This document shows positions 8,661 through 28,635 of a stretch of 60,000 nucleotides of DNA, in pieces. The stretch covers positions 35,838,001-35,898,000 of the forward strand of contig CM119371.1 in the NCBI GenBank assembly GCA_051294905.1. The letters are read 5' to 3'. Position 1 is the stretch's first letter; every line of letters begins with the position of its first letter. This stretch comes from Botryllus schlosseri (Eukaryota). Made by a program: the position numbers and the translations under genes. The notes under the pieces are model-generated. The model made no database searches, was not told the origin of the DNA, and worked only from the letters and a program-made list of their open reading frames with translations.

Positions 8661-10653
8661 CGTTTGTTAGCTTTGTTCCGTTCGTATGTCCCTGCAGTCA
8701 AACCAAAATACCAAAAACTATATATCTTTACAACCACCTGAAAGACGCATTAATGTAGAAGCCTTGGATCCAACGACTATGTGGATAGGCCTTCGTAAAT
8801 CATCGTAAAAAGCGATCTATTCGGAGATATACTACAACTGTCACGACATTTGCTGACGCACATCCATCTCGAAGCTATTCGCTACCGTCACAGTTTGCAA
8901 TTTGTCATTTGGATAGCCAAGAAAAGGAATTAGGATTTAAACCTCCCGAAATTCTAATGATTGGTAATTCCTGCTGCGGACATTTACCTAGCACCCAAAC
9001 ATCGTATACCGTTTACAGCTGATATCATTCATCTCGGAAAGGGCCCGTCAGTATTTGCAAGAGCTGATTCCATTATAAAACGAGCCATTACTTGAAATAA
9101 AGAAGCTTTAAATATTGACGAAAACTATATGGTGTATCTCTGCTGCACGACGGTAACTACACTACACCACACCGTTTCTAATTAAAATACCGTATATTCA
9201 GCTGATAAAAATGTGTTTTAGAGTGAATTCTCTTGATATACCGTACCACGACATGACATAGGCCTTTCTGTTCCGCCTACTGATATATACCGTTTCTTTT
9301 TAATAGCTTGTTCGGTTTATGTTTCCTTGCTGCTACTTGTGTTTCAATGAACGTAGCCTACACGTGTTTCGTATTTGCGTATAAGGCCAAGGTGGATGTT
9401 CGATTAAAAGACTATAAAGACTATACTTCAATTATTTACATCTTACGGCAATCGTGTAGTGCTTTGAAATGATGTAATTCTAAATACAGTGAACTCAATC
9501 AGAAGCAGACATGGGGTGATTACTTCATGATTGTAATCGATTGCGATTACGATTACTTCTGAATGACGCGATTACGATTACGATTACAGCAAATTCAAGA
9601 AGAAGTCGATTACGATTACGATTACATTGGAAAAGTAATCACGATTACTCACGATTACATTTATTTTGCATCTTGGAAGCTATGTCAGAAGCCAATATAT
9701 GGATTGCGCTGAAGAGGCCTAATGAGATAACAAACTCCCTTTAAAAGAGATGCGTCATTTGCTTGTTACGTCATAATGTACCCATTGCCCATTTCTATGG
9801 AGTTCAATTTATCGCACCCAATGATTTGCATTCTTGCCAGGGCCATAATTGCCGCACCCTAAATTTCCCAATAGGGTGGGGAGCGAGCTCGAAAAAGGGG
9901 ACTGAAAAAGTATTTCGTAAACCAACATAAGTTATAGAGTATTTTCGAGTGATCTAATTAACTTGAAAATCCTCTCTAAATCAGTGATTCCCAACCGCGG
10001 CTCCGAGCTAGCCTACTTGCGGCTCCCATTGACGTTGGAAAATCCAACAAAAATATTATAAAATCAAGTTAGAACAAACAAAAAAAATGATATTCAAAAA
10101 TTACACTTGCTTGGATTGGAATATGGAGTTTATAATTAAGGGTGGAGACCAATTCCTTTGCTGTCGAGTAGCGATTCTCTACTCAGCAACGATTTCGTTA
10201 CTCAACTCACGTCAAAAAGTATGCTCACACTCAAATGCGTTTGGATCGTTACTCAAATTTAAGTATGCTCATCATCAGACTAAATTAAGTGCAGGTGCAC
10301 TGTAAACCTAAACGCGTGCATTTATGCACCAAAATAACACACAATATTCGAATTTTTTTTAGATGCCACATTGCGTGGTAGCGATGTATGTCATAATATT
10401 GTGTGGTCTGAAGTGGCGTGTCCGTACCTATCACTGCAGAGCTCGAAATTATGTACCTGAAATGCCTCCACAGGCTCTGGAAAAATATTTTATTTTAAAA
10501 GAATCGGTTGTAAAATGTACGTTAAAAGTGCAAATTGCCGTTATAAATATGACAAGAAAAATTGAAAACAACAATTTTTTGACACTGTAAGACAGGATTT
10601 TATACAATAATAACAGAGCTTCTTGGAGGTAAAGAACTTCAATATACAATTGA

Positions 10654-11247
10654 ATAGTATGTTCATATTGAAATGAGCCCGAATATTTTCGGCTGACACT
10701 CGTCAGGGGTAATCGTCAGTAACTAGGAAAGAATTGGAAAGAACATTGTTTATCAACAAAATCGTATCACAAAATATGATGTCACCAGCATGAAATTTCG
10801 AGAGAGCGTTCAGTGCACTATTCCGATGCAGCTGGTACAGGACCTCCTTCTGTTGACAAAGTTCCGGCTGGTGTATTTTGATAAGTGAACCACAGTATGC
10901 TAATCAAAGTACTAGAAAAACTCCAAGTCACTCGCGAAACGTTCAACGCCAACATAGAGATATACAACAACCCAATCGCAATAGTGGAAGTAAAAGGACT
11001 AATAGCAGCGGAAATCACATGTATAAAATACACCAGCCTAAACTCTGTAAACAGGTTTTCGTGTTCCAGCTGGAAATAGTGCACTGAACGCACTCTCTCT
11101 CGAAATTTCATGCTGATGACGTCATATTTTGTGATACGATTGTTGATATACAATGTCCTTTCCAAATCTCTACTAGATTTGCTGACGATTACCACTGACA
11201 AGTGTCGACCGAAAATATTCGGGTTCATTTCAATATGAATATACTAT
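10654..11247. mobile_element. Fold-back MITE with about 170-bp TIRs
   Basis: atagtatgttcatattgaaatgagcccgaatattttcgg...cagtgcactatt inverted at ...ccgaaaatattcgggttcatttcaatatgaatatactat; fragment also at about 26903. Confidence 0.85.
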
Positions 11248-12040
11248 GTAACAGTAATAACAGTATAAAAGAACTGGATTCGGAACTAAAGCAAAGTGTA
11301 TGAACAGTAATGTTGCCAATAAACATTGTTTCTCACGAATTGACTAGTTACATGATCAAATGATTGAATTGCCAAAAAAACATAGTAAACCAATTTTGGT
11401 TTAACAGTATGTTATTTTGGAAAAGCCTTAATGTACAGTGCCACTAAAAACGAAAAGTTTACAAATTGAATGCATAGCAAAAAGTCTAGCCACAAAAAAG
11501 ACAAATTATTTTGCAAATGCAAAAAATAACAAAATCCACAATGTGCAGGTACCAAAAGAAAGCAGTACTCACAGCACAAGTACTTGGAGCAAGGGAGATT
11601 AATTAGCCTACATTTTTTCAATCGATTGCTGGGCATTTTGATATCTTTTCCAAGAATTGACGGACTTGTTCAACTGAAATCCCGATTTTTATCACCAACA
11701 AGGACACATTGAATGAATGGCATTATTTGAAAGACCTTGGGATAACTAAGATCTCAGTAGTAGCATGCTACGAGATCAATTATCATCTCAAGCGGTCTTC
11801 TTTGGTTTTCGGATCTGTGCTTGATGGTGATGCCATTTGGCCGCCATCCACGATTGTTCATCTCCATTCTCATGACGTGCAATCAAAAGATGAGGAGTCA
11901 GCTTTGAAGTCGGTAAATCGACTGTATGTGCCTGGAATTAAAACAATACGTTGGCTTTAAATTATTTTGCTAAATATTCACGTGCAAATCCAGAGCACAT
12001 GACCAACTTCAGCTAGAAATGCTTACAGGAGACTTCTCAT

Positions 12041-26440: not shown

Positions 26441-27839
26441 CAGCGGTTCTCAACCGGGGGTCCGCGGACCCCTAGGGGTCCGCGAAGCAATTTCAGGGGG
26501 TCCGCGAGACCTCTAAATTTTTTAAATGGTTGATTACCTAATTTTTATTTCATTTCTTAATTTGAGAAAGCATGAGGCAGTTTCGCACCACAACTGCTAA
26601 AACCTCGTGACTCATAGCATCATAATAATCGTCTGAGATGGACCATGGTCGTGTGGAAACTCATTTTCATTGTCAATTATCCAATAACCTGCTGATACAA
26701 ACATATTGCTCTTTTGAGACGTTTTGTTGGGGCTTGTGAAAAAAAAAATATGGAGATAGTAATGTCTACGAAACCTTCTCGATTTGAAGTTGTCAGTCTC
26801 ATCAAGTTAGTGAACAGTCGTTTGAAGTATTCCGAAGTATTTCCATAATTTGTCTCAATGCAGGGAACAGCTTCTTGGAGAACACTTAAACATAAAATTG
26901 AATAGTATATTCATACTTATATTAACCCGAATATTTTCGGCTGACACTCGTCATAAATCGGACAATGATATACCTGCTCTTAAAGCTCGGCCATCACATT
27001 TGGCGCATTCTTATTGCGGATGCCCTATCGACAAGGCTGATTTGTTTTTTTATGAACAAGGAGTGGTTGGTTGCTATCAAAGCATTACGCTCCATCCGTG
27101 AAATTCATATCACGAGTTATATTGGTATGCAGCCTTGTCTTGTGAATATTCAATTGTTCATGGTCGAAAATGTTTGCTAGTAGATATATATTTAACCCGA
27201 ACAGGACAAGTCGTTTCATGACAGTGTCTGGTTGGAAAACTGAGCATAAAATTTGTCTCTACTTTTAGATTAGGATTTCACTTTGACGGTGGAAACTCTC
27301 TGCGGGCCGATCAAAATGCCTTCGCGGGCCGATCAAAATGGCGTCGCGGGCCGAATCCGGCCCGTGGTCCGTATGTTGCCCGTCCCTGCGCTAGATGCTG
27401 GACGTGATATGTTCATAAAATATGTGTTTCTTCACTTTGGTGCCATAAATGTTGCGATCACACCAAAGGTATCGTCGGAAGCGTTATATGTAAATATTGC
27501 ATTAGCCTCCGTCTATCGTTGCTGAAATGGTTTTCGGCACTCCTCGTTCAAAACTACGACGCGGAATTTCAAGGCACGACCACGTACTTCAAGAAGTACA
27601 GCAGCAACATTAGCTTTGAAATAATAAAAGTCCATCAATTTCTCCTAAAATAGTATGATGTTATCATCAAGAAAAATCACTGTTTTGATGTTTACCACAA
27701 GTCTACAGTTCATATTTACACAAGACAGATGAAGGTTGCACCATAATAGAGCTAAAATTGAACTGAAACTTGAGGGGGTCCACGAGGGTCGGTGACGGTC
27801 AAAAGCGGTCCGCGAAGTCAAAAAGGTTGAGAACCACTG
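26441..27839. mobile_element. hAT (Charlie-like) MITE with nested fragments
   Basis: TIRs CAGCGGTTCTCAACC...GGTTGAGAACCACTG; exact TSD TCTTACAA; related decayed copy at about 38390-39415. Confidence 0.9.
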
Positions 27840-28635
27840 TCTTACAATGACACTAATGTACGACGTACGTATATCGAATATTTATTTAGTGTGGATACTT
27901 CTTATGCAATGACGATCAAAGCTAATAGGCTGTTTCTGACGTAATAATGAGCTGTGGCGTTGAAAATCAGACGTTTGTGCTGTCACGAGCCTGGTATAAT
28001 ATCTCTTCCTTGTTCACAAATGTTCAGTTTATGTCATATAGTTCTGCCAAAATAAAAAGTAATCGTTCTTTCACAGAGAAATCGATTAGATATGGGAAGT
28101 AGTCGATTACGATTACGATTACTTCGGAATTTTTTCGAATGTAATCGATTGCGATTACGATTACTTGAAAATGCTGTAATCGTCGTAATCGATTACGATT
28201 ACTAATCGCGATTACCCCATGTCTGATCAGAAGACCTCAAAAATAGGTATTCGAGTTGTATATTTTATCCATATATCACCGTTCAGTTTACGGATATAAG
28301 AGTATTCACAGCACAATTGAATCTCGCAATTGAATCATTTGAATATTACGCGTATGAGCCAGACGTTAAAACAATAGCAGCGTCCGGTAAACCACTGCGT
28401 TGTCGATAAGAGCTTCACCAACATTCAGCACTCCGAATTTACGTACCACGCATTATAGTGAAATAGGACATATTGCCTTTACTTGTCTTCTTTCTGGATA
28501 TGGCATTTGCAGCGGACCAGTGGAGCGGGCTGCATAGCGGTGAAGTATTTTGCAGCGTCATATTTAATCGTGCGATCTTTTCGGACCTAGACTTTTAAAG
28601 TACAGAGTATAGTCGCAAATGTTTTAATACTTCCG

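Follow-up and report, generated by a model that had tools for sequence, protein, structure and literature searches.

Introduction

Several hAT transposons are known to carry, or to have accumulated, foreign DNA. Anolis hobo_AC elements are 9-15 kb long, hold transposable element (TE) cargo and multiply, and the families hobo-N1 to N15 carry TE fragments, according to the sections of PMC3014272 devoted to them. In maize, nested insertions have brought Ds1 up to 24 kb and Ds2 up to 12.7 kb; the account in PMC3260210 holds that size alone is no barrier to Ds transposition and also reports an Ac/Ds macrotransposon that moved 100 kb. The Tol2 element is described in PMC8151067 as carrying 10-11 kb without loss of efficiency and far more with loss. 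Here we analyse an 18.7-kb stack of nested TEs in the genome of the ascidian Botryllus schlosseri. It occupies positions 9506-28225 of a 60,000-nucleotide stretch (GenBank assembly GCA_051294905.1, contig CM119371.1, 35,838,001-35,898,000, forward strand), which we call the window and from whose first letter all positions are counted. By its ends and its copies, the outermost element, the host of the stack, is a member of a multi-copy non-autonomous hAT family and is about 2.2 kb long once three large inserts are taken out. It is highly probable that this host inserted here and that unrelated elements then nested in it, step by step and in situ. A non-exhaustive search of the literature, covering nested insertions in ascidians and composite elements that move whole, found no report of the outer family.

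Results

The outer element and its ends

A sequence-only reading of the window had bounded the block by the terminal inverted repeats (TIRs) of one MITE (miniature inverted-repeat transposable element) and by a perfect 8-bp target-site duplication (TSD). Both boundaries stand. The TIRs (9506-9517 and 28214-28225) agree in 12 of 12 letters, and in 13 of 14 over a longer stretch, and ATCAGAAG borders them on both sides (9498-9505 and 28226-28233) as an 8/8 TSD. Order-3 Markov copies modelled on the window, 30 in number, yielded no such perfect 12+8 pair; a looser pair (TIR 12/14, TSD 8) appeared in 2 of 20 null copies. A wider candidate pair at 8120/29026 (TIR 10/12, TSD 8) was rejected as being at chance level (null mean 1.3 pairs per window), and a loose TIR/TSD scan within the block yielded noise only.

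Behind the ends lie arrays of GATTAC/GTAATC hexamers, 13 on the left and 12 on the right, each within 170 bp; the only other such array in the window is at 39401-39600. The first arm (9506-9981) and the second arm (27848-28225) each comprise a 12-bp TIR and a GATTAC array. The minus strand is assigned to the arms, and to the element as a whole, by the orientation of the transposase remnants that related elements contain. The hAT end motif, given in PMC3014272 as YARNG, has G as its fifth base, where the outer TIR, which starts with CAG, has C. The outer element displays an 8-bp TSD, short TIRs that are YARNG-like except for this fifth base, and subterminal repeats, as expected of a hAT transposon. 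Its length without the three inserts A, hAT1 and hAT2 is 2234 bp. A typical MITE is shorter than such a host. The host interior (25578-26440) includes pieces of other dispersed repeats, of which 25674-25790 resembles 35209-35319 and 25780-25859 resembles 33530-33614.

Relatives and the source of transposase

The block encodes no recognizable transposase. Among its 114 open reading frames (ORFs) of at least 50 amino acids, the longest of which has 141, no Pfam family scored above its cut-off (all weak matches fell below), and no intact transposase ORF of the kind that defines an autonomous hAT element was present. Nor did tblastn detect a hAT transposase remnant in the window copy of the outer element (best E in the block 0.64). 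Relatives were sought in metagenome contigs, the outer element's first 18 bases serving as the probe, which gave 87 loci (L001-L087) at 43 distinct sites; the counts below leave out 6 of these sites and use the 37 whose TIR is followed by at least three hexamers. Fifteen relatives are complete, with a TSD of at least 6/8 (perfect in 10) and a length of 538-2059 bp. The target pattern nTnnnnAn fits 18 of the 37 sites, against 9% by chance, and also both window copies of the family, including the left TSD copy at 9498-9505, while TA stands at target positions 4-5 in only one of the 37. The target preference of the Buster group is a contrast to this pattern. The sites accordingly show the preference of the Ac/hobo group, to which we assign the outer element, nTnnnnAn being the target pattern of Hermes in the account of PMC10368747.

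These relatives match the window in the arms alone (9506-9674 and 28083-28227), at 70-87%, and no other window repeat was matched. An arms-only match, a likeness of at most 87% and the lack of matches to other window repeats together indicate that they belong to another species, and the shared ends may reflect old vertical conservation or horizontal transfer. An 88-residue frame from one relative (L016) led to 56 proteins, and Dimer_Tnp_hAT exceeded its cut-off in 7 of the 16 of these that were scanned. One such Dimer_Tnp_hAT protein (P0054) matches 51 of the 87 loci, in 49 of them inside the element; the remnants in the relatives gave no Pfam match on their own. Since hAT transposase remnants lie within relatives that have the same ends, the outer family is one of hAT deletion derivatives. 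In that other species, most copies retain remnants from the N- as well as the C-terminal part of a hAT transposase.

A second copy of the host and a captured Charlie-like fragment

Self-comparison of the window revealed that 9504-10271, 22927-23081 and 25520-25673, separated in the block, are contiguous at 39437-40509. This second copy (39439-40976, minus strand) comprises the first arm and a Charlie-like fragment; the sites of A (near 40210) and hAT1 (near 40360) stand empty in it. Compared with the block freed of A, hAT1 and hAT2, it is 87% alike over 1114 columns, with 6-9% mismatches by segment (7.6% in the first arm). It starts at the same TIR, has a different flank, and lacks A, hAT1 and the second end. 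These properties favour insertion of a host followed by nesting in place. Segmental duplication is disfavoured as the origin of copy 2 because the likeness begins at the TIR, though a transposase-made duplication with its breakpoint at the TIR could still account for it.

The inner CAGTGATTCCC element, taken for a MITE by the sequence-only reading, does begin at 9982 and does hold A. However, it is a 5' fragment only, corresponding to some 540 of the 968 bases of a stand-alone full-length copy at 46375-47342 (plus strand). Its right end is absent, and it is split by hAT1 as well as by A. The fragment, from a Charlie/Buster-like non-autonomous hAT on the plus strand, spans 9982-25577 in three pieces (9982-10297, 22931-23083 and 25528-25577), and the stand-alone copy, which contains neither A nor hAT1, served as its reference (70-76% alike). 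Both copies of the host cease to match the stand-alone element at the same base (46911, equal to 25577 and 40413) and then continue alike. A shared breakpoint with a shared continuation implies that the host had acquired the Charlie-like fragment by the time its two copies separated, and the composite of about 2.2 kb, host plus captured fragments, probably moved as a unit. As to the stand-alone element itself, its flanks form no TSD, and its frame at 46991-47188 has no Pfam match; the ending of this frame presumably resembles those of Buster/Charlie transposases, a motif likeness judged by eye.

Empty sites in other individuals

Contigs from four of ten sequencing runs (X1, X6, X7 and X5) were compared with 8900-28850 at 90% likeness, and the evidence on joints comes from 15 listed of 1471. 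Each large insert has its empty site. The site of A is seen as a joint 10295->22931 (2 ambiguous letters) in all four runs, at roughly 16-47 times the flank depth. That of hAT1 appears as 23075->25520 in two runs and in a variant form in all four (about 20-26 times), and that of hAT2 as 26432->27840 (8 ambiguous letters) in all four (about 16-26 times). A short interspersed nuclear element (SINE)-like insert within A likewise has an empty site, 16655->16925, in all four runs (about 5-13 times), and two A contigs break off at 17416-17418 and then diverge, as expected of A copies without the CCCAG element. The two outer arms occur at matching depth in every run (600/587, 1003/947, 325/347 and 385/381 times the flank). 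These ratios are orders of magnitude, having one flank site as their base, and in X7 the depths of the two flanks were unequal (2.9 and 6.5). Roughly, then, both arms represent one family of several hundred copies, and the host occurs without each of its inserts tens of times over. Sites in A and the CCCAG element at which the entire contig depth differs from the window were rejected as proof that an insert is absent from those animals, because private differences occur in the flank too, the table was a selected one and contigs drop rare variants.

Such abundance raises the question of whether the two outer ends belong together at all. They might derive from separate copies of the family, in the manner of a macrotransposon, or their TSDs might match by chance. 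With hundreds of copies, two ends could fall close to each other; depth drops at host positions 25951 and 28044, so that other copies may not be continuous base by base over the whole 2.2 kb, and the match of copy 2 to the block ends after 25792. Yet the block holds only one end of each kind, removal of the three inserts leaves a host of about the relatives' size range, the three empty-site joints are similar in depth, and null windows fail to produce a 12+8 pair. We therefore regard separate ends or a chance TSD as very improbable.

Elements nested in the host

The nesting is four levels deep (outer element, Charlie-like fragment, A, CCCAG element), in keeping with the minimum first proposed. 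The CCCAG element, hAT1 and hAT2 lie and end where they were originally placed, and their TSDs are perfect; the SINE and several MITEs reported within A were recovered as a SINE-like insert and inner MITEs. For A the correction is small: it starts at 10298 and holds the CCCAG element as claimed, but ends at 22930 rather than 22932, with a 2-bp TSD (TG) and a damaged right end. Two window paralogues and the empty-site joint support this boundary and TSD; they also led us to reject a 3-bp TSD. In the right TIR of A the last letters are gone.

By its CACTG ends A (10298-22930) is CACTA/EnSpm-like; its family is low-copy. It contains a MITE-like piece with long inverted arms (10615-11247), which is high-copy, 235-236 contigs running off at 10615 in X1 and X6. 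Also within A are a hAT-type MITE with GACTCGAGTC repeats (12041-12533; TSD 8/8, TIR 9/14) and a MITE with an exact 16-bp CACTG TIR, inverted arms of about 159 bp and no TSD seen (12587-13041), of whose family there is a further fragment at 13220-13322. The SINE-like insert (16656-16904, plus strand) has tRNA-type A and B boxes, recognized by eye without an ARAGORN or Rfam call, and is missing from other A copies. The CCCAG element (17419-22887, 5469 bp) has an exact 17-bp TIR and a 2-bp TSD (TA), and its ends place it in the animal CACTA/EnSpm (TRC) group. A CCC start with a 2-bp TSD marks animal CACTA elements in the families covered by PMC1636069 and PMC4298943; a CAC or CCC start and a 2-bp TSD are found in both A and the CCCAG element, the right end of A being damaged. 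A Transposase_21-type gene of either element was sought among the block ORFs with Pfam, without a match, and a homologue search with one A piece of 61-66 amino acids found no relative (the other pieces were searched with Pfam only). On the minus strand of A, 13700-15900 contains stretches that resemble exons, among them a C2H2-like motif that a change of frame near 15650 interrupts. They may be remains of A's genes, and homologue and Pfam searches gave no match.

Directly in the host and its Charlie-like fragment sit two high-copy hAT elements with 8/8 TSDs. The first, hAT1 (23084-25519, 2436 bp), has an exact 14-bp TIR and a 198-bp internal tandem repeat. The second, hAT2 (26441-27839, 1399 bp, plus strand), has a TIR (13/14) that is SPIN/Charlie-like by comparison with the TIR table of PMC3014272. 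An extremely deep short repeat (summed depth above 1 million in X1) lies at 24930-25040, where hAT1 probably carries a very abundant element.

Ages, intactness and a possible move of the loaded element

The sequence-only reading had proposed comparing the divergence of outer and inner elements, and for the inner elements, measured on long contig pieces of the four runs, the ages indeed differ. The CCCAG element departs from its other copies by 0.66% (51 of 7766 letters, 17 pieces), A by 4.2% (143 of 3440 letters, 8 pieces), and flank alleles depart from the window by 2.9% (56 of 1953 letters, 4 pieces). As 0.66% is below 2.9%, the young CCCAG element inserted after the window haplotype had split from those of the other runs, and the present block is no older than this insertion. 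Different insert ages fit stepwise insertion in place.

Of the 14 window elements that have both termini and a TSD of 8 bp, a sample biased towards elements found by their TSD, nine keep that TSD perfect, which makes the intactness of the outer element unremarkable. The arrays, TIRs and TSD that the idea of a mobile cargo element relied on are all in place, but mobility of the whole block, though possible, is left unsupported, given that perfect TSDs are usual, insert-free hosts are many and the inserts differ in age.

Two versions of that idea deserve separate consideration. In one, the host together with A, and perhaps hAT1 and hAT2 (about 10-13 kb), was built elsewhere and moved as hAT cargo, with the CCCAG element and the SINE arriving in place. 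The intact termini and arrays would suit it, as would outer ends that are perfect while an end of A is damaged, and Anolis hobo_AC, which at 9-15 kb with TE cargo still multiplies in the description of PMC3014272, is a precedent. It has to contend with the many host copies that lack each insert and with the frequency of perfect TSDs in the window; moreover, a second copy of any of these junctions was not seen in the window or the listed joints. We consider this version improbable.

In the other, the complete 18.7-kb block was transposed whole after the CCCAG insertion. Neutral decay speaks somewhat in its favour: the chance that TIR and TSD stay perfect is about 0.2 at the age of A (4%) and 0.76 at that of the CCCAG element (0.7%), so perfect ends are likelier under a young move. 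Size is no obstacle either, to judge from what PMC8151067 tells of Tol2 and PMC3260210 of the 100-kb maize macrotransposon. Such a move would nevertheless be confined to the last 0.7% or so of divergence, a small share of the history of the stack, and presupposes that the outer family was active at that time; transposition efficiency drops with size, and no sister copy was seen in the window or the listed joints. Its probability is accordingly very low.

Surroundings of the block

The window is rich in repeats, has about 40% guanine plus cytosine and contains BTB-kelch and tRNA genes. Two intronless BTB-kelch genes (41429-43145 and 55928-57649) are 86% alike in DNA; the former has an open frame of 545 amino acids, and in the latter the frame breaks into two near 56780. 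The duplication starts at 41425, exactly at the end of a MITE fragment behind copy 2. On the minus strand, 4796-5136 is a probable Ser/Thr/Pro-rich exon with AG and GT borders, for which a homologue search found no relative; the block may lie within an intron of this gene. Genes for tRNA-Ser and tRNA-Thr, also on the minus strand, are located at 29071-29229 and 45304-45377, and the tRNA-Thr region is duplicated (29116-29380 against 45264-45525, 74%). Other repeats include a non-autonomous hAT with a perfect TSD (5809-7657) and a C-terminal transposase remnant at 7133-7276 (minus strand; tblastn E down to 6e-7), a separate nest (1231-3405) in which an element at 1908-3265 (TSD 8/8) sits within a GACTCGAGTC-type MITE, a tandem array of an 80-bp unit (49100-50640) and a near-perfect palindromic MITE (52441-53054; 614 bp, 94%).

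Discussion

The history that best accommodates these data would have begun when the ancestor of a subfamily took up scraps of other repeats together with a Charlie-like element's 5' half. The resulting composite would then have spread to tens of sites, as its two different flanks and multi-copy joints bear out, with transposase presumably supplied in trans and binding to the GATTAC arrays. One copy would have landed here, generating the 8-bp duplication. A, hAT1 and hAT2 would have entered this host singly, and A itself would have received the SINE and, latest of all, the CCCAG element. That the insert families are separate, multi-copy, absent from other host copies and of differing ages was observed directly; that each inserted at this very locus is what we infer from it. 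The block would thus be a passive pile-up without transposase whose outer ends survived by chance. Besides copy 2, this history is supported by the empty-site joints of A, hAT1 and hAT2 at tens of times the flank depth, by the matching depth of the arms, by relatives of 538-2059 bp with hAT remnants and by the lack of Pfam matches in the block ORFs.

Several observations weigh against a passive pile-up. Summed contig depth is not the same as copy number. The 15 joints listed of 1471 do not include the orthologous empty-site joint 9505->28234, and none of the four runs has a contig joining unique flank to a host that lacks an insert; flank contigs end before the junctions, at 9427 and 28276 in X7 and at 28321 in X5 and X6, and so do not bear on the state of the site. 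The perfect TIRs and TSD lean mildly towards a recent move. The density of insertions is likewise ambivalent. Outside the block, 28 kb of residual DNA hold 21 elements, whole or in fragments, and against this background three inserts in the host (P 0.23) and six in A (P 0.26) are near expectation, in a block that was selected as the largest stack, which bears on the test; if only half of the background were as young as the host, the stack would be denser than expected (P 0.05 and 0.02).

Among described systems, hobo_AC and hobo-N1 to N15 of Anolis come closest, being hAT elements with an 8-bp TSD of the NTRNNYAN type, among them non-autonomous families of 1.3-3.4 kb that multiply with TE fragments (PMC3014272). 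The cargo of hobo_AC, as that paper presents it, is older than its carrier and common to many copies, whereas here the inserts are intact, have their own TSDs, are at most as old as the host and were seen in one copy only. As in maize Ds, a small non-autonomous hAT has been swollen to many kilobases by later insertions. The filler in the Ds cases of PMC3260210 is mostly long terminal repeat retrotransposons, in contrast to the DNA transposons and SINE found here. With the Ac/Ds macrotransposon the block shares hAT ends around a long stretch of nested TEs; in the case related in PMC3260210, however, the cargo lay between two entire elements and was seen to move, while here the ends are those of one element and movement is hypothetical. 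The CCCAG element resembles SmTRC1 and Spongebob_HMa/EnSpm-4N1_HM in its CCC(AG) TIR start, 2-bp TSD and size (4.5-9 kb in the parts of PMC1636069 and PMC4298943 concerned); it differs from animal TRC elements in that Pfam found no transposase domain in the block ORFs. Finally, MER6, a MITE with a SINE-derived domain, is a parallel for the joint amplification of two kinds of TE within a single small non-autonomous DNA transposon, although its carrier is Tc1/mariner as characterized in PMC6887750, not hAT. Given hobo_AC, maize Ds with its macrotransposon and Tol2, there are precedents both for a small composite and for a large move, should one have occurred.

Taken together, a whole move of a gene-free hAT of 10-19 kb, the large end of the 2.2-kb composite family, with two CACTA-type elements, two hAT elements and a SINE aboard, is unlikely. 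Were it true, it would offer elements whose own ends are dead, A among them, a way to reach new sites, and if the block moved whole, it would be a natural large-cargo hAT transposition in an animal, here an invertebrate, though hobo_AC and the maize macrotransposons came before. As a passive pile-up, which we favour, the locus is a well-resolved case of nested transposons in which every layer has its paralogous empty sites, and can serve to build a repeat library for this genome and to order the activity of its transposon families.

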